Assembly (NCBI RefSeq): GCF_963921235.1
Contig: NC_086108.1
Span: 930,001 to 994,000 of the forward strand
Direction of reading: 5' to 3'
Source: Mobula hypostoma
Lineage: Eukaryota
Length of the DNA: 64,000 nucleotides
This document shows positions 8,976 through 48,459 of this stretch, piece by piece (within the stretch, counting starts at the first letter, position 1; each line of letters opens with the position of its first letter). Position numbers and translations under genes: made by a program. The notes under the pieces are model-generated. The model was not told the origin of the DNA. It saw nothing but the letters and a program-made list of their open reading frames with translations, and searched no databases.

Positions 8976-10314
8976 CTCTTTCTTTGCATCGCTGTCTGGT
9001 ATGGGGTGTGGGGGAAACAACTGCACAGGACTGAAATAAGCTGCAGAGAGGTATAAACTTGGTCAGTTCTGTTATGACAATAAAGTATAAAGTAAAGTAT
9101 AAGTATGAGCACTAGCCTCCGCAGAATCCAGGACACCTTCATGGAGTGATGTCTCAAAAACAAGCGGCATCCATCATTAAGGGCCCCCATCGCCCACGTT
9201 CTCATTGTTACCAACAGAGGGGAGGGACAGGAGCCTGAAGGCACACACTCAAACAATTCAGGAACAGCTTCTTCCCCTCTGCCATCCAATTTCTGACCGG
9301 ACAATGAATCCGTGAACACTACCTCACTAATTTGCTTTCGCTCTTTGTACTGCTTATTTAACATTTTTAATATATACTGTAATTTGCAGTTTTTATTATT
9401 ATGTATTGCATTGTACTGATACTACATAACAACAAATTTTACGACATATGCCGCTGATATTAAACCTGATACTGATTCTGAATCTGGTCCAATCCTGACT
9501 CGTGTGTGTGGAGTTTGTATGCTCTACCCATGATCCTGTGGCAGGTCCAGCTTCTCTCATGTCCCAAGTTGTCCCTCGTATGTAAATAATGGATAGAATC
9601 CAGGCAAAATTAAAGGGAAACATAAATAATGAGAGACTGCAGATGCTGGAAATCCAGAGCGATACACACAAACCGCTGATGGAACTCAGCAGGTCAGGCT
9701 CAGAATAAAGAGTCAACGTTTCGAACTGAGACTCATCCTCAGGACTGGAAAGGAAGGGGGAGTAGTTCAATCTGGCAGGATATATGTGACACACACAAAA
9801 TGGTAGAGGAACTCAACAGGTCAGGAAGCATCTATATAAATGAATAAACAGTCAACGTTTTGGGCTGAGTTCCTTAAAAGCAATGTTGGGGGAAATGAAA
9901 TGGGATTAGTGTGGATGGGTGCTTGATGGTCAGAATGGACCTGACGGGCCAAACTGCCTGTTTCCATATGGTATCACTTGACACCTCTCCTGTTTGATCA
10001 GGAATGCACTGTTCTGTGCTATAGTACAATTTCACAGTAACTGCACGCCTCTCGATATTACTCAGACTTCATGATGATGAACAGGTGACTTTTGATGTTC
10101 TAAATGACTCTTAATAGCAGCCTAAACCTTCCCTCTCAAATAGCCCTCCATTTTTCTATCATCCATGTGCCTAACTAATGTGTCTGCACTACAGGGGGTT
10201 TTATGCCATGAAGCCTTACCTTTGACTGAGGGGTCTGTGAACCTGCTCTTATGTATCCGGCAGTGCGTTCCATGCACCGACTGCTCTCTGTGTAAAAGAA
10301 AATATACCTCTCAC

Positions 10315-10529
10315 GTCAACACACACAAGATGCTGGAGGAACTCAGCAGGTCAGGCAGCATCTATGGAAATAAACAGGTAGTCAATTTCTCAGCCCTGAA
10401 GAGGGGTCTTGGCCAAAACATCGACTGCTTATTCACTTCCATAAATGCAGCCTGACCTGCTGAATTCCTCCAGAATATTGAATGTGTTGCTCTGGATTTC
10501 CAACAACTGCTGACTTCCTGGTGTTTACG
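10315..10529. mobile_element. Older Penelope pLTR hairpin insertion
   Basis: Inverted arms around a degenerate hammerhead; TSD atatacctctcac (10302-10314) / atttacctctcac (10530-10542). Confidence 0.7.
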
Positions 10530-10784
10530 ATTTACCTCTCACTACCCCCATACTTTCCTCCAGTCACCTTAACATAACGCCCTTTCATATTAGCCATTTC
10601 TGCCTTGGGGAAGAGTCTTTGGCTGTCCACTCGATTCTCCTGAGTGTTGAGGAATTGAGTTAACTCTTTGAATTAGATCAGTCTGCTATTAAACCTAATT
10701 TCCCAGTTGTGGATCTATCCACAGTGCTTGAGTGATCATAGTCCGATGTAACGAGTTGTCCTGTGGCGTTTGCTGATGTTCTAG

Positions 10785-11003
10785 GTCACAGTCTGAGTCC
10801 AGCTCAGGGACGAGGTCACGGTCGCGATCGAACTCGCCTACCCACGAGGAGAAGATCACCTACATCACAAGCTTTGGCGGCAGTGAGGACGAGGGCGGAT
10901 CGATGGCGCAGACTGGGGTGACCTCTGCCAAGGCCCCAATTGGCAGGCATCGGAACTCCAACACGCAGCAGGGCTCTGGCACAGGTCATGCCAGCTCCTC
11001 CCG
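10785..11003 (+). CDS. CLASRP: CLASRP exon, SQSESSSGTRSRSRSNSPTHEEKITYITSFGGSEDE...HASSS(R)
   Basis: Acceptor gttctag|; EEKITYITSFGGS motif. Phase-2 donor cg|gtcggt at 11004 is required for frame with the next exon. Confidence 0.92.
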
Positions 11004-12079
11004 GTCGGTAACTTTCAAAATCTTTCCTTTTCCATTCCCAAAGCCACTGATTTTGCTGCTAGAGGGAAAGGTCAGGACTTCTAAAGAATGAAGGTTTTGC
11101 AGCCAATCATCTCATAGCGTTCAGACAGATTGGGAGAATGGGCAAAGCAGTGGCAGTTGGAGTGCAGTGTGGTCATGCCCTTTGGTAGAGGGAATAAAAC
11201 TGTAGACTATTTTCTAAACAAGGAGCGAATTCAGAAATCGGAGGTGCAAAAGGACCTAAGAGCCCTAGTGCAGGATTCCCTAAAGGTCAACTTGCAGGTT
11301 GCGTCGGTGGTAAGGAAAGCAAATGCACTGTGGGCATTCATTTCAAGAGCACTAGAATATAAAAGCAAGGATTTGATGCTGAGGCTTTATAAGGCATTTG
11401 TAGATTGCTCTTGGAGTATTGTGAGCGGATTTAGGCCCCTTCATCTAAGAAAAGATGTGCTGGCGTTGGCAAAGGTCCAGAGGAGGCTCATGTAAATGAT
11501 CTCGGAAATGAAATGGTTAGCATTTGAATCTGGGCCTGTACTCATTGGAGTTTAGAAGAATGAGGGGAGATCTCATTGAAACCTACCGAACACTGAAAGG
11601 GGTAGATAGAGTGGATGTGGAGAGGATGTTTCCTATGGTGGGGGAGACTTGGACCAGCGGGTACAGTCTCAGAATACAAGGATGTCCCTTTTGAACAGAG
11701 ATGAAGAATTTTTGTTGCCAGAGGATGATGAATCTGTTGAATTTATTGCCACAGACAGCTGTGGAGGCAAAGTTATGGGGTATATTTGAAGTAGAGGTTG
11801 ATACATTCTTGATTAGTCAGGGTGTTAATGGTTTCAGGTAGAAGGAAGGAGAATGGGGTAGAGAGGGAAAATAAATCAGCCCTGATTGAATAGCAAAACA
11901 GATTCGATGAGCTGAATGTCCTAATTCTGCACCTGTGTTCTTTGATGTATAACCTTGCCCTGAGAAATGGCAGCCTCTTGAACGGTGCAGATTGTTTGCA
12001 TTAACGAGCCGAGAAGATTAGGGCAATTGATACCAAACATGGCTTTTTAAAGCATCATCATCATAGAGAGAAGGTCAAG

Positions 12080-13200
12080 AGTTCAGTATAAACAGATTTG
12101 GTAAATGCATTTAACTGTCATGTGATGGAAAAGTATAGTGATTATACTCACATTTATACAGATGGTGTGAAGGAACCTGAAACAGGAGTGATAGGGTTTG
12201 GGGTGGTAATACCAGCAAAAGAAATTGGAATCAGCAGAAGAACATCTAATAAGTTAGGAGTGTTTACAGTGGAGATGCTGGCGGTGTTGGTTGCGTTGCA
12301 ATGGGTGCAGAAAGCCAGACAAGTCAAAGCATTGATATGTTCAGATTCATCCTCAGTTCTAGCAAGTTTAAGGTCTTTTCACACAAACAGTCGGCAAGAT
12401 GTACTTTATGAAGTCCTTCAGTTAGTTACAAGAATTGCAAATCAGGGAGGTCAGGTAAAATTTCTATGGGTTCCAGCACATGTAGGGGTGAAGGGGAATG
12501 AGAGGGTGGATGAGTTGGCAAAGAGGGCGTTAAAGAAAGAAAATGTGGAAATGCACATTAGTATCAGTAAAGCAGAGGTTAAGTGTGTAATCTCGGAAAA
12601 AGTCAACCGAATGTGGCAAGAAAGATGGGACGGGAGGGGAAAGGGAGGCATTTATATCAAATACAAAAGAGTGTTGCAGGTACGAGGGTAGGTAATGGAA
12701 ACAGAAGAGAGGAAATTGTGTGGACTAGGTTAAGGCTGGGGCATTGAGCATTAAACAAAACATTGAAAATGATAGGGAAACACCAGACAGGATTGTGTGA
12801 GGAATGTCAGGAAGAGGAGTCAGTAGAACATCTAGTTTTGTGTTGCAGGAAGTATGGGATACAGAGAGAGATGATGAGAAATAAATTAAGGGAGTTGGGG
12901 ATGCAGGAATTCACATTAAAAGGGTTGCTGGGCATGGGTGAGAGAGCACAAGTCCGGGTATTTTTAGCATTTTTAAGGGGTACAGGGGTTTTTTATAGAA
13001 TATGGCGAATAAACAGGAATAGGATACTAGGGTGGTCAAAGATGGGAGGGTGAAGTGTAGGTTTGTGTGTGTGTGTGTGTGATTGGGTGAAGGGATTTAG
13101 AATGTATGTCTAGTGCACATTCTGGAGCAGAGGGTGGCGGTAATGCACCATTAAACTGGATGCCAACCGCCGTAAAACAAGATACAGACAGACAGACACA
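12080..13200 (+). mobile_element. I-group (Nimb/I-like) LINE 3' part with RNase H and CCHC knuckle
   Basis: ORF 12098..12691 has RNase H motifs YTDG, EM.AV..AL, SDS.SVL, WVPAHVGVKGNE.VD. Then TRLRLGH and CEEC...ESVEHLVLCC; (caga)n tail. One frameshift and one stop. Confidence 0.85.
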
Positions 13201-17000: not shown

Positions 17001-19738
17001 TCGTAATAGCCATTTCAACCCTGGGAAAAAGCCTCTTGCTATCCACACGATCAATGCCTCTCATCATCTTATACACCTGTATACGGTCACCTTTCATCCT
17101 CCATCGCTCCAAGGCAATGGGACAGTCTGCAGTTCAACTTCTAAACCTAAGAGGTTCTGCATATGCTGGGAATCTTAATGCTGGAGGAACTCAGCAGGTC
17201 AGAGAGTATCTATGGAGAGGAATGGTTATAGCCCAAAGGAAGGAAGTGGGCAAAATCTAGAATAAGTGTTTGATGGCTCTGGACCTGTACTCACTGGAAT
17301 TGAGAAGAATAAGGGGTGGCCTCATTGAAACCTATCGAATGATGAAAGGCCTCGATAAAGTGGATGTGACGAGGATTTTTCCTATACTGGGGAGTCTAAG
17401 ACCAGAGGACACAGCGTCAGAATAGAGGGGTGTCCCTTTGGAACAAAGATGAGGAATTTCTTTAGCCAGAGAGTGGTGAATCTGTGGAATTCCTACCACA
17501 GATGAGGAGGCCAAGTCATGTGGTATATTCATTAGTTATCGTGTGTTATCTGTTCTACTGTGCTTTAGATTCTGGTTTGGAGAAATATTGTCTTGTTTCT
17601 ATATACATTATAACCATATAACAATTACAGCACGGAGACAGGCCATCTCGGCCCTTCTAGTCCGTGCCAAACTCTTACTCTCACCTAGTCCCACCGACCT
17701 GCACTCAGCCCATAACCCTCCATTCCTTTCCTGTCCATATAGCTATCCAATTTAACTTTAAATGACAACATCAAACCTGCCTCAACCACTTCTGCTGGAA
17801 GCTCGTTCCACACAGCTACCACTCTCTGAGTAAAGAAGTTCCCCCTCATGTTACCCCTAAACTTTTGCCCTTTAACTCTCAACTCATGTCCTCTTGTTTG
17901 AATCTCAATGGAAAAGGCCTATCCACGTCAACTCTATCTATCCCCCTCATAATTTTAAATACCTCTATCAAGTCCCCCCTCAACCTTCTACGTTCCAAAG
18001 AATAAAGACCCAACTTGTTTAACCTTTCTCTGTAACTTAGGAGATGAAACCCAGGTAACATTCTAGTAAATCTTCTCTGTACTCTCTCAATTTTGTTGAC
18101 ATCTTTCCTATAATTCGGTGACCAGAACTGTACACAATACTTCAAATTTGGCCTTACCAATGCCTTGTACAATTTTAACATTACATCCCAACTCCTATAC
18201 TCAATGCTCAAATTTATAAAGGCCAGTATACCAAAAGCTTTCTTCACCACCCTATCCACATGAGATTCCACCTTCAGGGAACTATGCACCATTATTCCTA
18301 GATCCCTCTGTTCTACTGCATTCTTCAATGCCCTGCCATTTACCATGTATGTCCTAATTTGATTAGCCCTACCAAAACGTAGCACCTCACATTTATCAGC
18401 ATTAAACTCCATCTGCCATCTTTCAGCCCGCTCTTCTAACTGGCCTAAATGTCTCTGCAAGCTTTGAAAACCTACTTCATTATCCACAACTCCACCTATC
18501 TTAGTATCATCTGCATACTTACTAATCCAATTTACCACCCCATCATCCAGATCATTAATGTATATGACAAACAGCATTGGACCCAGTACAGATCCCTGAG
18601 GCACACCACTAGTCACCGGCCTCCAATCTGACAAACAGTTATCCACCACTACTCTCTGGCATCTCCCATTCAGCCACTGCTGAATCCATTTTACTACTTC
18701 AATATTAATACCTAATGATTGAACCTTCCTAACTAACCTTCCGTGTGGAACCTTGTCAAAGGCCTTACTGAAGTCCATATAGACAACATCCACTACTTTA
18801 CCCTCGTCAACTTTCCTAGTAGCCTCTTCAAGAAATTCAATAAGATTTGTCAAACATGACTTTCCACGTACAAATCCATTTTGACTGTTCCTAATCAGAC
18901 CCTGTCTATCCAGATGATTATATATACCATCTCTAAGAATACTTTCCATCAATTTACCCACCACTGACGTCAAACTCACAGGCCGATAATTGCTAGGTTT
19001 AGTCTTAGAACCCTTTTTAAACAATGGAACAACATGAGCAATACGCCAATCCTCCAGCACCATCCCCGTTTCTAATGACATTTGAAATATTTCTGTCAGA
19101 GCCCCTGCTATTTCTACACTAATTTCCCTCAAGGTCCTAGGGAATATCCTGTCAGGACCCAGAGACTTATCCACTTTTATATTCCTTAAAAGCGCCAGTA
19201 CTTCCTCTTCTTTAATCATCATTGTTTCTATTACTTCCCTACCTGTTTCCCTTACGTTACACAATTCAATATCCTTCTCTTTAGTGAATACCGAAGAAAA
19301 GAAATTGTTCAAAATCTCCCTCATCTCTTTCGGCTCCACATATAGCCGTCCACTCTGATTCTCTAAGGGACCAATTTTATCCCTCACTATCCTTATGCTA
19401 TTAATATAACTGTAGAAACCCTTTGGATTTAGTTTTACCTTACTTGCCAAAGCAACCTCTTATCTTCTTTTAGCTTTTTTAATTCCTTTCTTAAGATTCT
19501 TTTTACATTCTTTATATTCCTCGAGCACCTCATTTACTCCAATTTGCCTATATTTATTGTAGATCTCTCTTTTTTTCCGAACCAAGTTTCCAATATCCCT
19601 TGAAAACCACGGCTCTCTCAAACTTTTAACCTTTCCTTTCAACCTAACAGGAACATAAAGATTCTGTACCCTCAAAATTTCACCTTTAAATGACCTCCAT
19701 TTCTCTATTACATACATCCTTCCCATAAAACAAATTGT

Positions 19739-20655
19739 AAGCACAAAATAATCTGCAGATGCTGGGGTCAAAGCAACACTCACGACAAGCTGGAGGAACT
19801 CAGCAGGTCGGGCAGCGTCCGTGGAAAAGATCGGTTGATGTTTCGGGCCGGAACCCTTCGTCAGGACTGTAGGGGGAAGGGGCAGAGGCCCTATAAAGCA
19901 GGTGGGGGGAGGGTGGGAAGGAGAAGGCTGGTAGGTTCCAGGTGAAAAACCAGTAAGGGGAAAGATAAAGGGCTGGGGGAAGGGAGGCAGGGAGGTGATA
20001 GGCAGGAAAGGTGAAGAAAGAATAGGGGAAAACACAATGGGTAGTAGAAGGAGGCGGAACCAAGAGGGAGGTGGTAGGCAGCTGGGGGAGGGGGCAGAGC
20101 GACATAGGGATAGAGGAAGGGAGGGGGAGGGAATTACCGGAAGTTGGAGAATTCTATGTTCATACCAAGGGGCTGGAGACTACCTAGATGATATATGAGG
20201 TGTTGCTCCTCCAACCTGAGTTTAGCCTCATCATGGCAGTAGAGGAGGCCATGTATGGACATATCTGAATGGGAGTGGGAAGCAGAGTTGAAGTGGGTGG
20301 CTACTGGGAGATCCTGTCTGTATTGACGGATGGAGCGGAGGTGCTCGACGAAGCGGTCCCCCAATCTGCGTCAGGTTTCACTGATGTAGAGGAGACCGCA
20401 CTGGATGCAATAGATGACCCCAATAGACTCACAAGTGAAGTGTTGTCTCACCTGGAAGTACTGTTTGGGGCCCTGAATGGTGGCAAGAGAGGAGGTGTAG
20501 GGACAGCTGTAGCACTTGCGCTTACAGAGATAAGTGCCAGATGGGAGATCCGTAGGGAGGGACGTGTGGACCAGGGAGTCGTGGAGGGACCGATCCCTGC
20601 GGAAGGCAGAGAGGGGTGGAGAGGGAAAGATGTGCTTAGTGGCACATCGTAGTTG
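19739..20655 (-). mobile_element. 5'-truncated Penelope-like element (GIY-YIG endonuclease end, 3' UTR/pLTR with hammerhead motif)
   Basis: FTCESIGVIYCIQCGLLYISET and DRFVEHLRSIR...VATHFNS...LEEQHLIYHLGSLQPLGMNIEF; ctgacgaagggttccggcccgaaacatc on minus at about 19837-19864; 15-bp TSD cataaaacaaattgt at 19724-19738 and 20656-20670. Confidence 0.92.
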
Positions 20656-22747
20656 CATAAAACAAATTGTCCCAATCCACTCCTAAATCCTTTCGCATCT
20701 CCTCAAAGTTAGCCTTTCTCCAATCAAAAATCTCAACCCTGGGTCCAGTCCTATCCTTCTCCATAATTATATTGAGAGACAAATGGCGTTGTGATCACTG
20801 GACCCGAAGTGCACCCTAACACATACCTCTGTCACCTGACCTATCTCATTCCCTAAAAGGAGATCTAACACTGCCCCTTTTCTAGTTGTTACCTGTATGT
20901 ATTGCTGCAAAAACCTATCTTGCACAGATTTTACGAACTCCAAACCATCCAGCCCTTTTATAGAATATGTTTCCCAGTCTATGTGTGGAAAATTAAAATC
21001 TCCCACAATCACAACCTTGTGCTTACAACAAATATCTGCTATCTCTTTACAAATTTGCTCCTCCAATTCTCGCTCCCCGTTAGGTGGTCTATAATACATC
21101 CCTATAAGCGTTACTACACCTTTCCCATTCCTCAATTCCGCCCAAATAGCCTCCCTAGACGAGTCCTCTAATCTATCCTGCCAAAGCACCGCTGTAATAT
21201 TTTCTCTGACAAGCAATGCAACACCTCCCCCTCTTGCCCCACCGATTCTATCACAGCTGAAGCAATGAAATCCAGGAATATTTAGTTGCCAATCACACCC
21301 CTCCTGCAACCATGTTTCACTAATAGCTACAACATCATATTTCCAGGTATCAATCCATGCTCTAAGCTCATCCACCTTTCTTACAATGCTCCCAGCATTA
21401 AAATAGATGCATTTAAGAAACTCTCCACCTCTTACTCTCTGTTTATCCCGAATGGTGCAAACAACTTTGTTATCTTTTTCTTCCTTCTCCCCTACATCTT
21501 CAGTCCCAGTGCTTCCGTCCTCTGTCCCCTGCCCACCCTCCCTCACACACCGTCCACCAGCTCTCTCCATCTGTGAACCAACCTCCTCCCTCCTAATCTC
21601 TTCAATTTGATTCCCACCCCCCAACCATTCTAGTTTAAAGTCTCCCCAGTAGCCTTCGCAAATCTCCCTGCCAGGATATTGGTCCCCCTAGGATTCAAGT
21701 GCAACCTGTCCTTTTTGTACAGGTCACACCTGCACCAAAAGAGGTCCCAATGATCCAGAAACTTGAATCCCTGTCCCCTGTTCCAATCCCTCAGCCACAC
21801 ATTTATCCTCCACCTCATTCCATTCCTACTCTCACTGTTGCGTGGCACAGGCAGTAATCCCGAGATTACTACCTTTGCAGTCCTTCTTCTCAACTCCCTT
21901 CCTAACTCCCTATATTCTCCTTTCCCTTTTCCTACCTATGTCATTGGTACCTATATGTACCACAACCGCTGGCTCCTCACCGTCCCACTTCAGGATATCT
22001 TGGACGCAATCAGAAACATCCCGGACCCTGGCACCAGGGAGGCAAACTACCATCTGGGTCTCCTGACTGCGTCCACAGAATCGCCTATCTGACCCCCTTA
22101 CTATCGAGTCCCCTATTACTACTGCCCTCCTCTTCCTTTCCCTACCCTTCTGAGCTACAGGACCAGACTCTGTGCCGGAGCCACGGCCACTGTCGCTTCC
22201 CCCGGCTAGGCTGTCCTCCCCCAGTAGTACTCAAACAGGAGTACTTATTGTGAAGGGGCACAGCCACTGGGGTACTCTCTATTACCTGACTCTTCCCCTT
22301 CCCCCTCCTAACCGTGACCCACTTGTCTGCCTCCCGTGGCCCTGGTGTGACCACCTGCCTGTAACTCCTCTCTATCAACTCCTCACTCTCCCTGATCAGA
22401 CGAAGGTCATCGAGCTTCAGCTCCAGTTCCCTAACACGGTCCCTTAGGAGCTGCATCTTGGTGCACCTGGCGCAGATGTGGACGTCCGAGAGGCTTGGAG
22501 GCTCCAGGACCTCCCACATCCGACACTGAGAACAACAAGCTGCCCTCACACTCATACTTCCCCCTTTCCTCAAACGACAGGAAAAATTGAAAACCAAACC
22601 TACTTTGTCTCGCCTGTTTCCGACTAAGCCTGTTGAGCCAAAGCCCTTAAGCCTTCACTCTGCTCCCGGCTCACTCCGCTGCTCGCAAAACGATGCTGCC
22701 TGCTGTATAAGGCTGTGTTCCTTTCAAATCTTCCGCGCTTCACTGCC

Positions 22748-22755: not shown

Positions 22756-25698
22756 CAAGCCTGTGCAGTCCTGCCTCTCTTAACTCCGATGATGAGAAGA
22801 TATGATTATAAGATTATATGGTTATATATGTTATGTACATGTACAGTATATAGTTAAATGACAATAAACGTGAGTTAAAGCAGAGGCTGATAGATTCTTG
22901 ATTGGTCAGGGCATGAAGGGATATGGCAAGAAGGCAGGAGGGAGATGGAGTCACCAGATGGACCAAGCAGACTCATTCTGCTCCTGTATCTTTGCTCTAA
23001 TAAGAAGGTAGAGAGAAGGAGTGGAGTACAAGCTGGCAGGTGATAGCTGAGGCCAGGTGAGAGAGAAGGTGAGTGGATGGGTGGGAAGGGAGAGTGAAAT
23101 AAGCTGGGAGGTGATAGGTGGAAGAATTGGGAATGGAAACAGAGAAGGGGTAGGGGAGAATTTACTAGGAATTAGAGAAATTGATATTCATGCCATCAGG
23201 TTGGAGGCTACCCAGATGGAACATGTAATGGTGCTCCTGCAACCTGCATTTGGCCTCATAGTGGCAGTAGAGGAGGCCATGAACAGACATGATAGAATGG
23301 GAATGGAAAGTCGAACTGAAATGAGTGACCACTGGGAAATCTTGCAGTGGACAGTTTTACTTAAACGTATGCATTATGATTAAAATGGGGCAATGTGACT
23401 TCAGTAGGATTGTGTGCAATGATGGCATAAAAAGTTTTTCAGGAGCTTGGGTAATAAAGGAAAGTATAAGGAGGTTGAACTTGTTGTCTTTGGAAGCAGA
23501 GTTTGAGATGATCCAGCTGAGATTTTTAAGCTTATAAATGAAAGTGGTATAATATTCAATGGACCAGTATAGCACAGGACAGACATTTCAGCCCATAAAG
23601 ATGTACCAAATTAATTAACCTAATGATCCCTAATTACACTAATGTCTTCTGTCTGCATGTGGTCCATAAGACTCCATTCTCTATATATTCCTGTGCTTAT
23701 CTAAGAGCCTCGTGTTTCTGAATTGCTGAGTGTGTGTCTTCAGGCTCCTGTACCTCCTTCTGGATGGCAGCAGTGAGAAGAAGGCATATCCTGGGTGGTG
23801 GGGGGTGCTTAATGATGGATGCCACCTTTCTGAGGTATCGCTACCTGAAGACGTCCTTGACACTACGGAGTTCTGGAGCTGACTAAGTTTACAAATGTGT
23901 GCAGTTTATTTTGATCCCATGCAGTAGACCCCTCTCCCCATACCAGATGGTGATGCAGCCAGTTAGAATGTTCTCCACTGTTCATCCGTAGAAATTTGGG
24001 AGTGACTGATGATACACCAAATCTCCTCAAACTCCTAATGAAATGTAGTCACTGTTGTGCTTTCTTTGTAGCTGCATCAATATGTTGGGTCCAGGTTATG
24101 TCCTCAGAGATGTTAATGTGCAGGAACTTGAAATTGCTGACTCTTTCCACTTCTGATCCCTCTATGAGGACTGGTGTGTGTTCCCTCACTTTACCCTTTC
24201 TGAAGTCCACTATCTTTCTGACATCTGAGTCCAATCAAACAGCTGATCTATCTCGCTCTGGTATGCTATGGAAGTCTAGCTTGCCTGTAGAATCAAAGCA
24301 TTAAAGACAGCACCTGGCAATAGGGAATGGGAAGATCCCACAAATAGTTTACAGATGTGGGTCAATACAAGGCCTACTGGGAGATGTACTGACATGTACT
24401 GAGGTCTCATGCAGCTGAATAGCTTTGCTATGCTCTAGAAAGTATCAGGCAGTATTCCAGTTGTTGTAAGGTATTGGGTCCAAAGCTGGAGTGAGGGGTT
24501 TTGAGAGAGATGCGGAGGGTGGAAATTTCGAACAGAAATGAGGAGGAATTTCTTTAACCAGAGGATAGTGATCTGTGGAACTCTTTGTCACAGACAACTC
24601 TGGAGGCTAAATCATTGAGTATATTTAAGGCAGAGGTTGGTAGCTCTTGATTAGTCAGGGCATTATAGGTTATGGGGAAAAGCAGGAGAGTGGGGTTTAG
24701 AAGGACAGTGTTCCTAGTTTTAAAGAAAGGTCCCTAAAACATGGCGATGAATCAAATGGATTTAATTCTGGAATAGTTTATTTTATGTAAGATTGAAGGA
24801 GTCAGGCCTGCAGCTGAAACATTTCTCTAATCTTAGTCCGAACACCTCAGGTTCATTTGTTTGGTTTAAGGAGTGCATTCTCCAGGGACCGCTGCTGTGT
24901 TGTCTGAGTTGCAAATGGATACTGAATTGGGTGTTGTCTTGTGCTACATCTTGAATGCTTTTCTACATTAGAGCTGCAAATGGTGTTATGTAGAAATGGG
25001 CAAGTTTGAACATGCAGAAACCCAGCCAACGATTGCAGCATCAAAGCTGTTAACCTGAAGACATGATGTTAAACTGAGAGCCTATTGCAGGGATGTGAGA
25101 CTGCTGGACACGGCTTCAGAAGAGAGCAAAGGAGTTCTCCACAGTATAAAAGTAGAAAGTGTCGTCAAAACATCCAGGAGTGATAAATAGTTAACATTTC
25201 AGACTGATGATCTACCATCAGCTCTATCTTTACAACAGCTGTTCCCAACCTTTTTTATGCCATGGACCAATACCATTAAGCAAGAGGTTCGTGGACTTCA
25301 GGTCAGGAACCCTTGCTTCAGGGGATGAATATTGGCTGTGATACAATGCTCCACACATCTAAAACCTTCCATGAATCCTTTGTCATCTTCATGCACCTCT
25401 AGAGGAGTCAGAATGTGCTGCCATTTAATGTAACCTTGCTTGACCTAAGAAATGTCACCTTCAAGAAAGCAAGAGTTTCTCAGTGGAGTGGAGTGTCGGA
25501 GTGGACAAAGTCACTGACTTATCTTGGCTCAAACCAAATTCAATTTCAAACCCAGGCGAGGTGTTCTTGTTTCTCTCGATCTCCTTGTGTGTGTAATATT
25601 GTGCGTTTGTGGGTTTCAGCATACGAAAGCCTCAACAGATTCAGTTTTGGTGCCGGCAGACTATCGTTTATACTTTACTATGTTTCTGTATTCCTCAG

Positions 25699-25947
25699 GC
25701 GCCGCTCCTCTTCCTCTTCCTCGTCACAGTCTCGATCAGGCTCTCGCAGCCACCGATCCCACGGGCACCGGCGGACGAGGTGCTACTCCCGCTCCCGGTC
25801 CCGCTCGCGCAACAGGCACTACTCGCGATCGTATGGCCGCTACACCAGAGGAGGATCCCGGGACGGGCACCACTGCTCCCGCTCACACTCGCGCTCGGCT
25901 GACAGGACACGCTACATCAGCTCCCGCAGTCGTGGCAGGAGATCCAG
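25699..25947 (+). CDS. CLASRP: CLASRP RS-domain exon, RRSSSSSSSQSRSGSRSH...RGRRS(R)
   Basis: Acceptor ttcctcag|, donor ag|gtatgg; 249 nt, phase 2 to 2; Arg/Ser-rich with GGSRDGH motif. Confidence 0.93.
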
Positions 25948-26382
25948 GTATGGTGACGGCATCTGCTGCCCGGGTACAGATAGAACAGCACAATTGATAT
26001 TACACTTCACAGCACACAGCTGTAAGATCAGGGTTCAATTCCCACAGCTGTGTGTAAGGAGTTTGTACATTCTCCCCATGACCTCAGTGTGTTCTGCTTT
26101 CCTCCCACATTCCAAAGACGTATGGCTTAGGGTTAATAAGCTGTGGGCACGCTACCGGAAGCTTGGCGACTCTCGCAGGCTACCTCCAGTACATCTTTGG
26201 ACCTTGTTGGTGGTTGACGCAAATGACACATTTCACTGTGCGTTTCGATGTTTCAATGTACATGTAGTACAAAGCTAATCTCTTTAAAGCAGTGGTGGGA
26301 GCAGATTGAACAAGCACCACTGATCCACAATGGCAGAGGGTTAACCTTATGATCTGGCTACTGTGATCTTGCTGGATTTGAA

Positions 26383-31405: not shown

Positions 31406-31954
31406 GCCATTCCTTCTCCATTCCTTCTCAGTGCTGAAGAAGAGTCTTGGCCAGAAATGTTGACTGTTTATTCATTTCCATAGACGCTGCCTGACCTGCT
31501 GAGTTCCCCCAACATTTTGTTTGTGTTGCTTTAGAAATTTATGACACCGGGGTGATTTTATTTATTTATTTAGTGATCCAGCGTGGTAACAGGGCCTTGT
31601 GGCCCAATGGCACCCAATTTCATCCTACTAACCCATACATCTTTGGAATGCATAAGGAAACTGGAGTTCACGGACAAAACCACACAGTCACAGGGAGAAT
31701 ATACAATCTCCTTCCAGACGGCAGCAGAAATGAACCTGGGTTGCTGGTGTAATTGTAGCTTTACGCTAACTGCTGCCCATGTTATGTGTGGGTAGTTAAT
31801 GTAGGCGTAAATGGTGGTGTAGTACATGAAAATCTATTCAGTGTACAGTCTGCGTTGGAGTGGAAATCGGATTTGGGGGCAGTTTCCACCGTAATCATCT
31901 ATGTATTTGGCTGCTCCTGTGATGCTGTCTTAAAGCATTTCTCCTTCCCCCGAG

Positions 31955-32158
31955 GTCGCGGAGTCACTCGCGTTCGGACGACCGTTACCGCAGAAGCAGC
32001 AGGGGAGGCTACAGCTTGAGTCGACGCAGGAGCAGCAGCAGCCGGAGCAGCAGCGGCAGCCTGAGCCGCTCGCAGAGCCAAAGCAAGTCTCTGTCCCCCG
32101 TGAAAGAGAGCCTGGGGAAGGTGGCTGCCTCACCTGCCACCAGCGAAAAACTGAAAAA
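31955..32158 (+). CDS. CLASRP: CLASRP RS-domain exon, SRSHSRSDDRYRR...AASPATSEKLK(K)
   Basis: Acceptor ttctccttcccccgag| (GAG), donor aa|gtacga; 204 nt, phase 2 to 2. Confidence 0.9.
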
Positions 32159-32177
32159 GTACGACTGCACTCTCTCT

Positions 32178-32372
32178 GCCCCTCGCTCCCTCTTCACCTC
32201 CGCCCCTCGCTCCCTCCTCTTCACCTCCGCCCCCTCGCTCCCTCCTCTTCACCTCCTCCCCCTCGCTCCCTCCTCTTCACCTCCGCCCCTCGCTCCCTCC
32301 TTTTCACCTCCGCCCCTTGCTCACTCCTCTTCACTTCTGCCCCCTCGCTCCCTCCTCCTTACCTCCGCCTCC
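32178..32372. repeat. C-rich minisatellite, about 27-bp unit gcccctcgctccctcctcttcacctcc, about 7 copies
   Basis: Seen directly; starts 20 nt after the donor at 32159. Confidence 0.92.
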
Positions 32373-33720
32373 GTGTACAGCCTTGGTTTCCATATTGTGT
32401 GAGGGATGTCAAGGCACTAGAGAGAGTTCAGAGAAGGGCAGCTAAACTTATTCCAGGTCTGCAGGGTATGAGTTATGAAGAAAGATTGAAAGAATTAAAT
32501 CTTTTTACCCTAAGTAAATGTAGAAGGAGAGGAGACATGATAGAAGTGTTCAAAATCATGAAGGGTATAAGTAAACTGGATGCCAGCTGCTAGTTCAAAA
32601 TTAATCCATTATCGAGGACACGGGGCCATAAGTGGAGACTGGTTAAAGGGAGATTTCAGACTAATCTCAGGAGGCATTCCTTTACAGTGAGTTGTGAACA
32701 CATGGAGCAAACTATCTAGTTGAGTAGTTGAGAGTACTTTCAAATCTAAACTCAATAGTTATTTAAACTAACAACGTGAATAGGACTTTGGAAAGCTTTG
32801 TTGGGCCGAATGGCCTGTTCTTGTCAAAAACTTTATAATGTTCTAGAATACTGGATCTAAGGACTAGAAGTATTATTGGACTTTGTGGGCGTTCAAATTC
32901 CTTATTTGCGTGATCAATCATCCAAATAGAATCTCCACATTAAAGGCAAATAATACTTCAGAATTAGTAATTGACCAATAGTAAGTAACACTCTAGAACC
33001 CTAATAGAGTCATAGAAAGCTACAGCATAGAAACAGGCCCTTTGGCCCATCTAGTCAATGCCGAATCATTGAAGTTGCCTACTGTCATTGACCTGCACCG
33101 GGACCATAGCCTCCTTACCCCTGCCATCTGTTTACCTTTCCAAACTTCTGAATGTTGGAGTCGCAGCTGCCACTTACGCTGACAGCTTGTTCCACACTGC
33201 CTCCACCCTCTGAGTTTTCCTTCATGGTCCCCGTGAATCAGGGGTTCCCGGTCCTTTTATATCATGGACCCCTACTATTAACCAAGAGGTCTCTAGGCCC
33301 CAGGTTGGGAAACCCTGCCTTACACATTTCACCTTTCAGCTTTAGTTGCAGTCTCACCCAACTTCTGGAAAAAGCCTGCTTGCATTTACCCTATCTATAT
33401 ACCTCTATCAAATCTCCCCTCAGTTTTCTGTGATCTGCTTATTTTGTATCTGTATGCCAAATAGCTTCATATGCCAGTTGGTCAGTATCTATATTTAACT
33501 AATCCTAAACAATTCTGCTTAAAAATTACATTTTTTAAAATTCAAATGTTAGAACAGTTTGGTGATAGGGGCCAGGCTGTTCTCTTTGTGTGCAACTAAA
33601 TAGTGTGTTTGAGGATCGAGTGTAAGTTTTCAGAGACCGGTTCATCGGCGATGACACTGTGATTGTGTTAAGTTGACCCTCTGTCTCTCTTCCCCCCCCC
33701 CCCTTTTTTCTCATTCCCAG

Positions 33721-36725: not shown

Positions 36726-37071
36726 GTCAACTGTGCCCAAGAAACCGTCCAGAGAGAATTGGGTATTGAGGTAATTGCAATATGCACAGATGTTGCATAG
36801 AAGGAGGTTTGGATGCCATTAATAGAGGGAGAAGCAGAATGCGACTAAAGTTTCAGACTGCAGTGTTGAATAAGGGTTGGGTTCCTGAATAGCTACAGGG
36901 TTAAGTAATATCGGGATGCTAGGGCTATGTCAGTGATGTGAAATGCCCGTCCTACCAGCAATTAGTATAGTAAATAATACAAAAAACTGGAAGCAGTCAG
37001 CTCAGGTAGCAGCTGTGCAAAGAAAAAAAAAGTAGTTTACATTTCAGGTCTGTGATCGTTTGTCTGGTAGG

Positions 37072-37710: not shown

Positions 37711-38764
37711 AACCACTCTTCCTGTTGATATAAAAGACCACATGGCACTACTGGAGAAAATCGGAGGCGTTCTCCACTGCCACTTGGCTAACACCATAAT
37801 GCTGGTTGAGCTTACTTGCAAATCAGCTGCTGTACCTCCAAAATTGCAGCACCAATTACACTTCCCTGGCATCTAAAGAATACAACTGCAGGTTCCTTTC
37901 TTTTACATTCTAGAGAGGGGCTTGTGCTCAGCTCTCCAGCCTTGCGAATCCTATCCAGCTGTCACTCACTGCATCTGTGGAGGAGAGAGCGATGTCTGGA
38001 TGTCAGATTCTTGATGCACAGTATTGAGCTGAGCCCCAGAGATATCTGACCCTGACTACCCCATTGCCACTAAAATTTTGTGCTGTCTCAACATGGGACA
38101 CTACAGCACAGTCTATAAGTTGTGCTGACCTTCTAAGTCACTGTAAGATCAATCTAACCCTTCCACCCCCACCCCCACATAGCCCTCCATTTTTTTTTTA
38201 TCACCCATGTGCTTATCTAAGAGACTCTTCAATATCCCTAATGTATCTGTCTCTACCACCACCCCTGGCAGGGTGATCCACACACCCTCTGTAAAGAAAA
38301 ACGTACCACTCACATTCCCCTTCAATCATCTTAAAATTATGCTGCCTCACATTGGCCAACTCTGCCTTGGGGGAAAACGTCTGTGACTGTCCGTGCGATC
38401 TGTGCCTCTTACTATCTTTATCAAGTTGCCTCTCATGCTGTTTCGCTCCCACGAGAAAAGCCCTAGCTCGCTCAACTTATTCTCATAAGACATGCTCTCT
38501 AATCCATTTAGCATCCTGGTGAGGTGAATTTAATATACCTGGGCAGTCCATGCTCACTGACTCTATACCTACCCATAGTGCCCTCACCGTAATACCTGTA
38601 ATCCGGTGTTCAAATCCAGGTCCAGGTCTGTCAGTGGTAGCTTTTGTTGCCAAGACGTTAGAAAGCAAAACAGGTTTTGGTGTTTGGTGAAATCCCAGAG
38701 AGCTGTTTGTGCTCAGCAGCAAGATCCCAATGGGATGGGCTGCTCAGGACTGCGATATGTCGTA

Positions 38765-39363
38765 GCAGCACATGCAGAATACTGGAGGAACTCAGCAGGT
38801 CAGGCTAAGTGGATTTTCGGCATCTGATGTTTGAAATATGTCGCACCTTTGTGGATGGTGGGGAGGAGTAAACATTTCTGGCTGAGCTCCTTCATCAGGA
38901 TTGAATGCCTTATATTCCGGCTGGGCATGTCCATCGATCTTTCGAATTTCTTGTAATTCCTCCCCCCGTTCCCTTCTCTCTTTCTCCATTTCCCATTCTG
39001 GCTCCCCCTCACCTGCTCATCACCTTCCTCTGGTTCCCCTCCTTCCCTCCCTCCTGTGGTTCTCTTTCCTCTCCTACCAGACAACCTCTTCCTCCCATCA
39101 CCTCCCAGCTTTTTACTTCATCTCCCCACCCACCCACACACCTTCCCCCTCACCTGGTCTCATCTATCACCTGCGAGCTTATACTATTCCCCTCTCCCTC
39201 ACCTTCTTATTCTGGCATCTTCCCCCTGCCATTCCAGTCCTGATGGAGGGTCTCAGCCTGAAATGTGGACTGTTTATGCCTCTCCATAAGCCTGACTTAC
39301 TGAGTTCCTCCAGCAATTTGTGTGTTGCTCCCTTTTCCCAGCATCTGCAGAATCTCTTGCATT
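38765..39363 (+). mobile_element. Older Penelope insertion with inverted 5' arm
   Basis: Inverted pLTR piece 38765-38900, then forward UTR, degenerate hammerhead at 39235-39272 and tail. TSD tgcgatatgtcgta (38751-38764) / tgtaatatgttgta (39364-39377). Confidence 0.7.
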
Positions 39364-39486
39364 TGTAATATGTTGTACCCTTGTGGTTGTGCCCCTGTGG
39401 GATAGGTCCAGCTGGAATCTCCTTGAAGGGCTGGGTGTTATCCTCAAAGTTCAAAGTACATTTGTTATTTAAGTATGTATGCATTA

Positions 39487-41446: not shown

Positions 41447-41452
41447 CATATG
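41447..41452 (+). CDS. CLASRP: Candidate alternative 6-nt microexon CATATG (His-Met) of CLASRP
   Basis: tcctttgtttgcatttttctag|CATATG|gtgagc; lies in a phase-0 intron so frame is kept; TGC at -13..-11. No transcript evidence. Confidence 0.55.
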
Positions 41453-42501: not shown

Positions 42502-42979
42502 GTAGGCCTCCAGAGTAGCAGGCACTCCCACCACCTACGTCTCTGGTTACACCATAGAACAGTATGGGCCTTTCAGCTCACAGTGTGGTGCAGAACTTCA
42601 ACACTCTCCAAGATCTGTCTCACTGTTCCCTCCTGCATAGCCTTCCATTTTTCTATCACCCATGTGCCTATCTAAGAGTCTCTTAAATGTCCCTACTGAA
42701 TCTCCCTCTACCACTAGGACGTCCCATGCACCCACCACTCTGTTTAAAACAAACCTACCTCTGACTCCCCCCACCCTCTGATACTTCCCTATAAACACCT
42801 TAAAGTTCTTGTGTATTACCTATTTCCTTCCTGGGAGAAAGGTCTTTGGCTGTCCATGCCTCTTATCATATTGTGCACCCCTGTCAAGTCACCATTATTG
42901 ATGTAACACACACACTGTGCTGGAGGAACTCAGCAGGTCAGGCCAAAGCAATACACATAAAATGCTGGAGGAACTCATG

Positions 42980-45900
42980 AGACTATAAGACAAGGGAGCA
43001 GAATTAGGCCATTCAACCCATTGAGTCTGTTCCGCCATTCCATCATGACTGATCCCAGATCTCATTCAACCCCACACACCTGCCTTCTCGCCATATCCTT
43101 TGATGCCCTGACCGATCAGGAAAGGATTGACTTCCACTTTAAATATACGCACAGACTTGGCCTCCACCGCAGTCTGTGGCAAAGCATTCCACAGATTTAC
43201 CACTCTCTGACTAAAAAAAATTCCTCCCTACCTCTGATCTAAAGGGCCACCGTCAGTTCTGAGTCTGTGCCCTCTAGTTCTGGACAACCACCATCATAGG
43301 AAACATCCTCTCCACATCCACCCAATCTAGTCATTTTGGTAGGTTTCAATGAGATTCCCACCACATCCTTCTAAATTCCAGTGAGTAGAGGCCCAAAGCT
43401 GCCAAATGCTCCTCATGTGTTAACCCTTCCCAGAGTCATCCTTGTTAACTTCCTCTGGACTCTCCAATGATAACACATCCTTTCTGAGATATGGGGCCCA
43501 AAACTATTGACAATATTCTATTCTAAGTGTAGCCTGACTAGTGTCTTATAAAGGCTCAGCATTCTCTTCTTGTTTTTATATTATATTCCCCTTGAAATAA
43601 ATGCCATCATTGCATTTGTCTTCTCTACCACAGACTCAACCTTAAATTAACCTTTTGGGAGTGTTGCTTGAGGAGTCCCAAGTCCCTCTGCACCTCTGAT
43701 GTTTGAACGTTCTCCCCATTTAGATAATAGTCTGCATTATTGTTCCTTTTACCAAAATGCATTATCATACATTTCCCAACACTGTATTCCATCTGCCACT
43801 TTCTTGCCCATTCTTCCAATTTGTCTAAGTCCTGCTGCAATCACATTGCTTCCTCAGCGCCACCTACCCCTCCACATTCATTGCCTCTCCTTTGTCCACC
43901 CTGCTTGTTACTTCCTTGAAGAACTCTAACAGATTTGTCAGGCAAGATTTCCCTTTACAGAAACCATGCTGACTTTGACTTATTTTATCATTAATCTCCA
44001 ACGCTTTCCCAACCACTGAGGTTAGGCTAACTAGCCTATAATTTCCTTTCTTTTGCCTTTCTCTCTTCTTAAAGAGTGGAGTGACATTTGCAATCTTCCA
44101 GTCCTCCGGGACCATGCCAGAATCAATGCATCCATTATCTCTTCAGCAATCTCTCTCAGGTCCCTGAAATATAATCCATCTGGTCCAGGTGACTTATCTG
44201 CCTTAAGACATTTCAGTCTCCCTAGCACATTTTCCTTTATATTAACAATGGCACTCACTCCTGCTACCTGGCACTCTTGGACCTCTGGCACACTGCTAGT
44301 GCCTTCCACAGTGAAGACTGATGCAAAGTACCCTTTAAGTTTATCTGCCATTTCTTTGTTCCCCATTACTCCCTCACCAGCATCATTTTCCAGTGGTTCA
44401 GTATCAACTCTCATCTCCCTTTTATTCTTTATATAACTGAAAAAACTTATAGTATCCTGTTTTATATTTGCCCTCATATTTAATCTTTTCCCTTCTTTTA
44501 GCTTTTTTAGTTGCCTTTTGTTTGATTTGGAAAGCTTCCCAATCATCTAACTTCCCATTCACTTTTGCTACCTTATAAGCCCTTTCCTTGCTTTTATGCA
44601 GTCCTTAACTTCCTTTGCCAGCCACAGTTGTCTACCCCTGCCATTTGAGAACATCATCTTCTGTGGGACATATCTATCCCGCATCTTGTGAACTATCCCC
44701 AGAAACTCCAGCCATGTCTTGCTGTGCCATTGTCCCACCAATATCCTCCTCCAATCTACATGGGCAAGCCCACAATGTCATACCGACGATTGCATCACGT
44801 GTTCGTCTGTCTTATTCCGAATGCTGTGCTCTTTTAAATACAGCATCTTCAGTCCTGCGTTTTTCATCCTTTTGAATTTTGCCTCTGTGGTACAATTTAA
44901 CTCTTTGTTCTGTCTGTTTTTGTACCCAATCATTGGCTTGTCCTTCCTTACATTCATATTACACCCATCATCTACTGGTAAACCTGCTGGCTCATCCTCA
45001 GCTCTATCAAACTGGTTCCCATCCCCTGCCATATTAGATTGAACTACGCCAAACAGCTCTAGTAAACCTGACCACATCCCCCTGCCATATTAGATTGAAC
45101 TACGCCAAACAGCTCTAGTAAACCTGACCACAAAAATATTTGTCCCTCTTAGATTCAAGTGCAACCCGTTCCTTTTGTTCAGGTCCCGTCTACCCTAGAA
45201 AAGGTCCCAGTTATCTGAAAGTCTGAATCCCTGCCCCCTGCTCCAATTCTTCAGCCACACATTTATCTGTCACCTCATTCTATTCCTATCCTCACTGTCA
45301 CATGGCAGAGGCAACAATTCTGAGATTACTACCCTGGAGGTCCTGCTTCTCAGCTTCCTTCCCAACTCCCTGTATTTTTTTTTAGGACCTCCTCCCTGTT
45401 TTCTGCTCATGTTGTTGGTACCACAACTTCTGGTGGCTCACCCTCCTTTTCCAAGTAATATATAGATGCATCCAGAAACATCGTGGACCTTGGCACTGGA
45501 AGGCAAACTACCATCCGTGTTTCCTTCTTGTGTCCACAGAATCGGCTATCTCTCCCCCTGACTATAGAGTCCCCTAATACTGCTGCCATCCTCCAGTTCC
45601 ATATAACCATATAACCATATAACAATTACAGCACAGAAACAGGCCATCTCAGCCCTTCTAGTCTGTGCCGAACACTTAGTCCCACCGACCTGCACTCAGC
45701 CCATAACCCTCCATTCCTTTCCTGTCCATATAGCTGTCCAATTTAACTTTAAATGACAACATCGAACCTGCCTCAACCACTTCTGCTGGAAGCTCGTTCC
45801 ACACAGCTACCACTCTCTGAGTAAAGAAGTTCCCCCTCATGTTACCCCTAAACTTTTGCCCTTTAAATCTCAACTCATGTCCTCTTGTTTGAATCTCTCC

Positions 45901-48205
45901 CGCTCTCAATGGAAAAAGCCTATCCACATCAACTCTATCAATTCCCCTCATAATTTTAAATACCTCTGTCAAGTCCATCCCCCCTCAACCTTCTACGCTC
46001 CAAAGAACAAAGACACAATTTGTTCAACCTTTCTCTGTAACTTAGGTGCTGGAATCCAGGTAACATTCTAGTAAATCTTCTCTGTACTCTCTCTATTTTG
46101 TTGACATCTTTCCTATAATTCGGTGACCAGAACTGTACACAATACTCCAAATTTGGCCTTACCAATGCCTTGTACAATTTTAACATTACATCCCAACTCC
46201 TATACTCAATGCTCTGATTTATAAAGGCCAGCATACCAAAAGCTTTCTTCACCACCCTATCCACATGAGATTCCACCTTCAGGGAATTATGCACCATTAT
46301 TCCTAGATCCCTCTGTTCTACTGCATTCTTCAATGCCCTGCCATTTACCATGTATGTCCTTTTTTAATTAGTCCTACCAAAATGTAGCACCTCACATTTA
46401 TCAGCATTAAACTCCATCTGCCATCTTTCAGCCCACTCTTCTAACTGGCCTAAATCTCTCTGCAAGCTTTGAAAACCTACTTCATTATCCACAGCACCAC
46501 CTATCTTAGTATTATCTGCATATTTACTAATCCAATTTACCACCCCATCATCCAGATCATTAATGTATATGACAAACAACATTGGACCCAGTACAGATCC
46601 CTGAGGCACACCACTAGACACCGTCCTCCAATCTGATAAACAGTTATCCACCACTACTCCCTGGCGTCTCCCATCCAGCCACTGTTGAATCCATTTTACT
46701 ACTTCAATATTAATACCTAACGATTGAACCTTCCTAACTAACCTTGCGTGTGGAACCTTGTCAAAGGCCTTACTGAAGTCCATAGACACAACATCCACTG
46801 CTGTACCCTCGTCAACTTTCCTAGTAGCCTCTTCAAAAAATTCAATAAGACTTGTCAAACATGACCTTCCACGCACAAATCCATGTTGACTGTTCCTAAC
46901 CAGATGATTATATATACCATCTCTAAGAATATTTCAGTTAATTTACCCACCATTGACGTCAAACTCACAGGCCGATAATTGCTAGGTTTACTCTTAGAAC
47001 CCTTTTTAAACAATGGAACAACATGAGCAATACGCCAATCCTCCGGCACCATCTCCGTTTCTAATGACATTTGAAATATTTCTGTCAGAGCCCCTGCTAG
47101 TTCTACACTAATTTCCCTCAAGGTCCTAGGGAATATCCTGTCAGGACCCAGAGACTTATCCACTTTTATAATCCTTAAAAGCGCCAGTACTTCCTCTTCT
47201 TTAATCATCATAGTTTCCATAGCTTCCCTACCTGTTTCCCTTACCTTACACAATTCAATATCCTTCTTAGTGAATACCGAAGAAAAGAAATTGTTCAAAA
47301 TCTCCCCCATCTCTTTTGGTTCCACACATAGCTGTCCACTCTGATTCTCTAAGGGACCAATTTTATCCCTCACTATCCTTTTGCTATTAATATAACTGTA
47401 GAAACCCTTTGGATTTATTTTCACCTTACTTGCCAAAGCAACCTCGTATCTTTTAGCTTTTCTAATTTCTTTCTTAAGATTCTTTTTACATTCTTTATAT
47501 TCCTCGAGCACCTCAATTAGTCCGTGCTGCCTATATTTATTGTAGATCTCTCTCTTTTCCGAACCAAGTTTCCAATATCCCTTGAAAAACATGGCTCTTT
47601 AACCTTTCCTTTCAACCTAACAGTAACATAAAGATTCTGTACCCTCAAAATTTCACCTTTAAATGACCTCCATTTCTCTATTACATCCTTCCCGTAAAAC
47701 AAATTGTCCCAATCCACTCCTTCTAAGTCCTTTCGCATCTCCTCAAAGTTAACCTTTCTCCAATCAAAAATCCCAACTCTGGGTCCAGACCTATCCTTCT
47801 CTATAATTATATTGAAACTAATAGCATTGTGATCACTGGAGCCGAAGTGCTCCCCAACACATACCTCTGTCACAGACCTATCTCATTCCCGAACAGGAGA
47901 TCCAACACTGCCCTTTCTCTGGTTGGTATCTCTATGTATTGCTGCAAAAAACCATCCTGCACACATTTCACAAACTCCAAACCAAAAAGCCCTTTTACCA
48001 TATGGGCTTCCCAACCTATGTGTGGAAAATTAAAATCTCCCACAATCACAGCCTTCCCTTTTGAGCTTCAGGGCCAGACTGAGTTCCAGAAGCTTACCCT
48101 CCCCCCCTGCAGCAGTGCACAAAACGAAGTTAGGGGGACGGTCACAGGGGTGCTCTCCACTATCTGACGTTCCCCCTTCCCTCTCCTGGCAGTCACCCAT
48201 TTATC
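42980..48205 (-). mobile_element. Old deleted CR1 (42980-45600 and 48050-48205) with a younger CR1 nested at 45601-48050
   Basis: Host has RT and ORF1-esterase remnants (LGDSIVRG). The nested copy has an (atatggtt)n tail and closely matches the 17610-21000 element. Confidence 0.88.
45020..45131. repeat. About 56-bp tandem duplication inside CR1
   Basis: catcccc(c)tgccatattagattgaactacgccaaacagctctagtaaacctgaccac occurs twice. Confidence 0.9.
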
Positions 48206-48227
48206 AGCAGGTTAGGCAGTATTGATG

Positions 48228-48442
48228 GCCAGAGCAATACACACAAAATACCGGAGGAACTCAGCAGGTCAGGCAGCACCTATGGAGAGGAATCAACGGT
48301 TGGTGTTTTGGGACAAAATCCTTCATCACGCCCCAAACATGACTGTTTATTCCTCTCCATAGCTGGTGCCTGACCTGCCGAGTTCCTCCAGCATTTTGTG
48401 TGTTTCTCTGGATTTCCAGCATCTGCAGAATCTCTTGTGTTA
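48228..48442. mobile_element. Older Penelope pLTR hairpin insertion
   Basis: Inverted arms, tail on the right, fold-back inside a decayed hammerhead. TSD-like gcagtattgatg (48216-48227) / gcattgttgatg (48443-48454). Confidence 0.65.
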
Positions 48443-48459
48443 GCATTGTTGATGATGTG

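Follow-up and report, generated by a model that had tools for sequence, protein, structure and literature searches.

Penelope-family insertions in the window

The window analysed here, a 64-kb stretch of Mobula hypostoma DNA (contig NC_086108.1, positions 930,001 to 994,000, assembly GCF_963921235.1), contains five loci, labelled A (3492-4223), B (10315-10529), C (30353-30568), D (38765-39365) and E (48228-48442), at each of which a tailless arm of a Penelope-family sequence lies inverted against a tailed arm. In agreement with the original prediction, made from the same sequence, we regard each of these as almost certainly a separate insertion, truncated at its 5' end, of an elasmobranch Penelope-like element (PLE), a high-copy retrotransposon, with the standard PLE layout. 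This layout is already known, and is given as the typical PLE structure in the relevant sections of PMC3846280 and PMC8557442, and PMC11167929 ties the tail to two start sites of the reverse transcriptase; the five loci are one more example of it, not a system, and their value is mechanistic.

A single pair of target site duplications (TSDs) encloses the entire unit in all five loci, with none internal; each pair was assessed against 1500 random position pairs from the same search space. In A, an identical 14-bp TSD (3478-3491 and 4224-4237, 14/14, p 0.0013; the first base of the right copy is also compatible with the element) flanks a tailed arm on the minus strand (3492-3845), comprising 3' untranslated region (UTR), hammerhead motif and a 33-nt tail at 3492-3524, and a tailless inverted arm on the plus strand (3844-4223). 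The arms overlap at the junction by two nucleotides (TA), the tailed arm has a 39-nt deletion relative to the inverted arm, and the inverted arm extends around 15 nt further 5'; family sequence beyond the junction is visible in the loose-end consensus at 3845 among contigs of two runs, X3 and X5. The other four units were read on the plus strand. B (10302-10542 with its TSD, 10302-10314 and 10530-10542, 12/13, p 0.0013) consists of a tailless inverted arm (10315 to about 10398) and a tailed arm (about 10391 to 10529) with a 38-nt tail. C (30339-30582; TSD 30339-30352 and 30569-30582, 14/14, p 0.0013) has an inverted arm (30353-30448) and a tailed arm (30446-30568, tail 35 nt) that overlap by AGG, and is inserted within an endonuclease open reading frame (ORF) of CR1 type, whose frame picks up again after one TSD copy. 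D (38755-39377; TSD 38755-38764 and 39368-39377, 9/10, p 0.012) is strongly asymmetric, with a short, interrupted inverted arm of about 145 nt (38765 to about 38907) and a long tailed arm of about 445 nt (about 38921 to 39365, tail 37 nt) that begins at the last ORF codons; the interruption consists of about 65 nt without relation to the element (38807-38871). E (48216-48454) has a degenerate TSD (48216-48227 and 48443-48454, 10/12, p 0.051), an inverted arm (48229-48328) and a tailed arm (48330-48442, tail 30 nt). A predicted TSD length of 12-14 bp is thus borne out for A, B and C (13-14 bp), but not for D, at 10 bp, and the 12-bp TSD of E is borderline. Identity between the arms falls from 98% in A (plus the 39-nt indel) through 95% in C, 86% in E and 85% in D to 81% in B, so that the spread of ages is real, as had been suggested. 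Only in B is the motif CAGCATCTGCAGA degenerate; the other four loci have it intact.

Searching the window with BLAST, and with a profile built from eight window copies, identified 14 loci with 21 arms of the family. The inverted arrangement accounts for 5 of these 14 loci, with no clear inverted arm seen in the remaining nine; the stereotyped integration route originally envisaged therefore describes a recurrent layout, but not an obligatory one. Three of the nine are single tailed arms: F (8505-8995, plus strand), which begins at the last ORF codons and has a TSD of about 10 bp (p 0.051); H (19724-20670, minus), a 5'-truncated copy with an exact 15-bp TSD (15/15, p 0.0013) that contains the ORF end, 3' UTR, hammerhead region and tail; and the short I (17142-17226, minus). 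H splits a CR1-type long interspersed nuclear element (LINE; 17879-21687) that has a long reverse transcriptase (RT) frame (Pfam RVT_1, E 2e-33) and an endonuclease frame. Single tailless arms are K (27925-28009, minus), L (31413-31533, plus), the weak and old M (36979-37059, minus; profile match E 0.0003) and the short O (54045-54102, minus). The direct tandems are G (9624-9880, minus; TSD p 0.051), a partial tandem of a tailless and then a tailed unit, and N (42900-42978, minus), two short tailless units. Additional to this count is J (22999-23344, minus), an ORF-end and UTR fragment that has no 3' end. We left G out as a sixth inverted locus: a very short inverted arm may be present there, but the 10-nt antisense match on which it depends is ambiguous and also compatible with mutated sense sequence.

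The TSD search gave p 0.18 or more at I, J, K, L, M, N and O. Left and right flanks were also queried separately for uninterrupted paralogues. An empty paralogous site of H (overlap 15) and two of F (overlap 10) agree with the respective 15- and 10-bp TSDs, and three such sites of K show a target deletion of 7-9 nt in place of a TSD. The window yielded no paralogous empty site for any of A, C, D and E, and the one match for B lies too far from the insertion edges to be of use.

The two 3' ends and the hammerhead region

The 21 arms fall into two classes by their 3' ends, 9 tailed and 12 tailless, and 7 of the 12 tailless arms belong to non-inverted copies. As these seven stop in the same zone as the inverted arms, the internal end is not the product of inversion that it was first taken to be. 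Measured in each locus on its own tailed arm, the tails of A-E are 33, 38, 35, 37 and 30 nt long; if starts were uniform, lengths differing by no more than 8 nt would be expected with P 0.0001-0.002. A fixed internal site some 30-40 nt from the end has, as proposed, been used repeatedly over a long time. The tail lengths are clustered, yet wider than the sharp 33-35 nt peak that had been foreseen.

The family is very abundant: contigs matching the 407 query bases number 106,908 in run X3 and 71,493 in run X5; no read of two raw-read runs, X20 and X21, matched, which does not count as a test. The tail end is a sharp boundary, with 460 (X3) and 454 (X5) contigs departing from the element at 3492 into dissimilar, A-rich sequence. 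Among the 16 pieces listed, out of more than 157,310, five have at least 50 unmatched letters on the tail side, and their ends (3527, 3528, 3532, 3492 and 3550) include three within the tailless zone. The tailless end is less distinct than the tail end, and fits a zone of about 10 nt. A rare opposite-strand joint, 3493/3526, occurs in both runs (3 and 4 contigs) with zero letters between its sides, tying the tail end straight to the tailless start with both canonical ends nearly exact; candidates for it are a TSD-less dimer of palindromic units, or a hairpin joined tail to tail in which the tail forms the loop. A further loose-end peak at 3626 (470 and 439 contigs) was considered as a truncation hotspot and discarded, its consensus resembling what lies upstream in older subfamilies. 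Six folds (z-scores -0.85 to +0.80) do not support a conserved 3' stem-loop as a marker of both ends, and Rfam microRNA matches on A and C, which score below the gathering threshold, are an effect of the palindromes.

A predicted minimal type I hammerhead motif lies about 130 nt from the element end, as in A (4122-4157, plus strand: stem I, CUGANGA, stem II, GAAAC-GUC), where a second copy starts at 3626 on the minus strand. Three intact matches were found in the window against 0.04 per shuffle, and the pairing holds in 84% of cells, compared with 18-41% when the motif is slid; covariation was not above shuffles, and a search of Rfam hammerhead models found none. Relative to the hammerhead core, the 5' ends of the 21 arms lie within -30 to +20 in 12 cases, at +21 to +70 in four, at -31 to -200 in none and beyond in five, a count in which the arms are not independent and the clustering may be inflated by upstream divergence between subfamilies. 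The near-equal lengths of B, C and E (215, 216 and 215 nt) follow from this clustering. We rejected ribozyme cleavage as the source of the 5' ends, because arms of B, C, D, E, G, K and L run past the predicted cut; stalling of the RT is accordingly the likelier cause.

Arm junctions and routes to an inverted unit

The inner ends of the two arms are separated by about 15 (A), 18 (B), 8 (C), 310 (D) and 15 (E) nt on the element, i.e. they fall within 20 nt of one another at four of five loci (P 0.02 against the pooled 21 ends), and those of A are coupled though 220 nt from the hotspot. The palindrome centres of all five loci differ, including those of A and C, which belong to one young subfamily and have centres 230 nt apart, and in A, B, C and E both arms carry common subfamily letters. 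Shared letters together with differing centres indicate that the mirror half was made at each insertion. The arm that reaches further 5' is the tailless one in A, C and E and the tailed one in B and D; both loop polarities therefore occur, and either strand is able to supply the loop. Among the 15 joints listed, out of 65, five join opposite strands; all five are different, each with 1-4 contigs.

These observations suggest a route in which cDNA synthesis is primed from each of the two target nicks, starting at the element terminus from one and 30-38 nt inside it from the other, and the two products are joined at a short microhomology; we judge this as likely to be right as wrong. The RT-endonuclease (RT-EN) protein would nick both target strands 10-15 bp apart, a spacing shown by the TSDs, and each nick would prime cDNA on element RNA, one from the terminus and the other from the second site. 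The basis for this second step here is the two end classes; in vitro, an anole PLE protein has two start sites and extends both strands (PMC11167929, in the experiments reported there). Synthesis would often halt in or near the hammerhead region, as suggested by 12 of the 21 arms, and one cDNA end would then anneal over 2-5 nt, either to itself or to the partner cDNA of identical sequence. Extension of that end would produce a sense strand able to pair with the other cDNA. After fill-in, the tailless inverted arm would follow the target on one side, and beyond the junction would come the sense arm, its tail and the target again. Retention of a single cDNA would leave a simple copy, tailed (F, H) or tailless (K, L, O). 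The palindromes would thus be dead-end products, formed anew at each landing. Two primed cDNAs, one per nick, account for both polarities, one tail and one TSD pair. The more specific proposal, that inverted pseudo-long terminal repeats (pLTRs) are a twin-priming footprint of a PLE dimer with one RT start site per nick, with the hammerhead stop setting the 215-nt size and either cDNA giving the loop, is more tentative, and we hold it somewhat short of an even chance.

Several points weigh against priming from both nicks. The inner ends of D are uncoupled, 310 nt apart, and there are five junctions only; those of B, D and E are old, with a divergence of 14-19%, and their ends can be placed to about 5-10 nt. 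The finished DNA is compatible with both self fold-back and annealing to a partner cDNA, and a later deletion at the centre could alter loop polarity. No TSD was found at six of the nine non-inverted loci (I, K, L, M, N and O), and that of G is borderline. The six loose-end rows listed for each run include none from the tailless zone, which also speaks against the foreseen sharp peak; the smallest of these rows holds 52 contigs in X3 and 25 in X5, compared with 460 and 454 at the tail end. The listed rows are a fraction of the total, with 900 others beyond them, some ends are uncounted, and the ranking rule is not stated. Tailless ends may on this account be rarer or more spread than the window implies. 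Finally, the in vitro data come from an element of the Poseidon clade, a different clade from the ray family.

The palindrome might instead pre-exist in the template, as an inverted-pLTR donor or a self-primed antisense transcript, and be copied whole, in the extreme case as a non-autonomous family resembling miniature inverted-repeat transposable elements (MITEs). Self-priming on an antisense template is argued for in PMC3846280, and such copying would account for the near-equal B, C and E and for the subfamily letters common to both arms. The similar lengths are, however, already explained by the hammerhead clustering, and a copied palindrome sits poorly with five different centres, above all with the 230 nt between those of A and C; the low contig counts of the opposite-strand joints, set against the totals of the two runs, point the same way, although contigs under-report hairpin joints and the test is weak. 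On balance we consider this origin unlikely.

Alternatively, a single tail-primed cDNA could fold back and copy itself, the copy being cut or stopping 30-38 nt before the terminus and joining the second target end. Coupled inner ends and microhomology are what this would produce, and PMC8557442 attributes the tail to EN-mediated resolution. Loop polarity is the discriminating feature: fold-back leaves the loop joined without a break to whichever strand was synthesised first, so that a tail-primed, self-copied cDNA gives only the arrangement of B and D, in which the tailed arm reaches further 5', and an internally primed cDNA is unable to supply a tail by self-copying. In A, C and E, which include the two youngest loci, the loop is continuous with the tailless arm, and the seven tailless arms of non-inverted copies are left unexplained; we think fold-back of this kind distinctly improbable. 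Least probable of all, and by our estimate quite improbable, are two head-to-head insertions by an endonuclease favouring its own pLTR, or long inverted insertions that later lost their centre by microhomology deletion. In their favour, the protein can nick its own pLTR (PMC11167929), the inverted arm of D is interrupted, and at site 3700 the arms of A have different letters, each of them frequent in the family (33% and 22%). Against them, every unit has one TSD pair at its outer edges and no internal one, its two arms are of matching subfamily, and exactly one tail is present in 5/5 loci.

The mechanistic value of the insertions lies in features that can be counted. The steps that make inverted repeats are called unresolved in both PMC8557442 and PMC11167929, and the short ray insertions hold junction and TSD within about 250 bp at very high copy number, with loop polarity and the one-tail rule as features that separate the models by counting. 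If twin priming by a PLE dimer is true, ray genomes, with tens of thousands of contigs bearing the Penelope end, record the whole pathway and would allow it to be tested by counting.

Coding capacity, neighbouring features and known systems

The ORF end is carried by H, with 174 codons, one internal stop, a CX3CxxC zinc linker and a GIY-YIG-like domain. Eight of 210 candidate proteins (306-2000 aa), from Hypanus, Mobula, Stegostoma and Chiloscyllium, match H at E 1e-10 or better with 47-80% identity. RT is absent from the window copies, and RT motifs lie upstream of the GIY-YIG region in these relatives. Four of five relatives scanned match Pfam GIY-YIG weakly (E 0.0005-0.005, under the curated cut-off) and H itself has no match to that model; a CxxC lies between the VIY and LYIG motifs in 8/8 relatives, where H has a 3-aa gap. 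The tailless arm of A matches the read-through after the GIY-YIG domain in Mobula protein P0004 (30/33 aa, same frame), so that A and C, the young subfamily, likewise derive from the 3' end of an RT-EN element. Annotators of ray and shark gene sets have entered these PLE RT-EN frames (P0001-P0008) as host proteins, for example as 'mucin-2' and 'divergent protein kinase domain 1C'.

The family has the features of endonuclease-containing (EN+) PLEs: a single ORF of RT and C-terminal GIY-YIG (the EN end in H, RT in the relatives), a CCHH motif with two cysteines inside GIY-YIG, a 30-40 bp one-ended tail, TSDs of variable length (10-15 bp at A, B, C, D, H and F), direct (G, N) or inverted (A-E) pLTRs with 5' truncation and, as a motif predicted from sequence, a minimal type I hammerhead in the pLTR. 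A Zn-finger-like linker of the form CX2-5CxxC between RT and EN, CX3CxxC in H and CX3-4 in most relatives, is that by which PMC8557442 defines the Neptune/Nematis type (RT, CX2-5CxxC, GIY-YIG); the likeness extends to the two internal cysteines and the R, H, E and N residues of GIY-YIG. The clade is assigned jointly as Neptune/Nematis, the Neptune label being assumed from the vertebrate host; Neptune is listed in fishes, and minimal hammerheads are reported in fish PLEs, in PMC4209133. Scans with a DNA pattern had no matches in metagenome or viral contigs, and of 89 candidates from metagenomes in a scan by protein alignment, not one was confirmed. The 23 pattern matches in prokaryote genomes were dismissed as chance hits to the core only (best E 0.0009, 14 bits against 15-130 bits in window copies).

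Elsewhere in the window, a 95-nt unit is repeated in 4.9 tandem copies (27397-27861, 96% match) and is 85-99% similar to a dispersed repeat at 3149-3327. An RNase H domain frame (12092-12691, Pfam E 3e-15) is probably the end of another LINE type, frames rich in Arg and Ser (25403-26278 and 31923-32402; no Pfam match) are likely exons of a host SR-type gene, and an exact 56-nt direct duplication lies at 45023-45132.

In being short, non-coding, palindromic and TSD-flanked, the inverted units resemble MITEs, as had been proposed, but the resemblance is of shape only. MITEs have symmetric terminal inverted repeats with a TSD of fixed length, whereas these units carry 30-38 extra nt at one end, have TSDs of 10-14 bp and consist of the 3' end of an RT element; nor is one conserved interior amplified, the five centres being different and the listed joints low-copy, although the latter is a weak test. 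Such Penelope stumps are at risk of misannotation as MITEs or microRNA hairpins. In LINE-1 twin priming both target nicks prime cDNA, giving an inversion with a TSD and junction microhomology, and the 5' part is inverted without being duplicated; the ray units differ in holding the same 3' sequence twice and in having a fixed internal start. Non-LTR retrozymes form tandem arrays of two or more consecutive complete hammerhead units, according to the portion of bioRxiv 10.64898/2026.07.22.740005 that describes them, and no such array is present among 16 rows of TRF output, G having one complete and one truncated unit and N none.

Closer parallels lie among the PLEs themselves. In PAc, the Poseidon element of Anolis carolinensis (PMC11167929), the results described include two 3' end classes that bound the tail, an upstream hammerhead, arms past the ribozyme cut site and an A/T-rich flank beyond the tail end, all as in the ray family; its protein, which has two RT start sites at the limits of the tail and cleaves and extends both strands, is a predicted dimer and does not need ribozyme cleavage. 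PAc belongs to another clade: the CX3-4CxxC linker is absent from Poseidon, and the internal end of the ray family lies in a GU-rich sense stretch, that of PAc in an AC-rich one. The main text of that paper does not address inverted arms and TSDs. Our literature search, which was thin on subscription journals so that an earlier model is possible, found no twin-priming model for PLE inversions and no batoid insertions. The closest likeness in layout is to the PLEs described in the corresponding parts of PMC3846280, PMC8557442 and PMC8969392, which have an inverted 5'-truncated copy at the 5' end, a one-sided tail of 30-40 bp and a variable TSD. The account of typical PLEs in PMC3846280 gives an adjacent inverted pLTR 37 bp shorter, a 31-bp tail on one of the inverted pLTRs and a TSD of 8-10 bp (9 bp in Adineta Pen2a, which has the same tail and pLTR difference), and explains the layout by self-priming; PMC8557442, with a general scheme in the legend to its Fig. 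2, describes the tail as often one-ended and leaves the mechanism undefined, and inverted pLTRs and 3' extensions appear as routine in the PLE descriptions of PMC8969392. With EN+ PLEs, as far as these sources describe them, the ray family also shares partial direct tandems and a palindrome or overlap at the inverted junction. It differs from the canonical examples there in that its units are mostly ORF-less stumps of 215-730 nt, with TSDs of 10-15 rather than 8-10 bp, in a batoid-like host.

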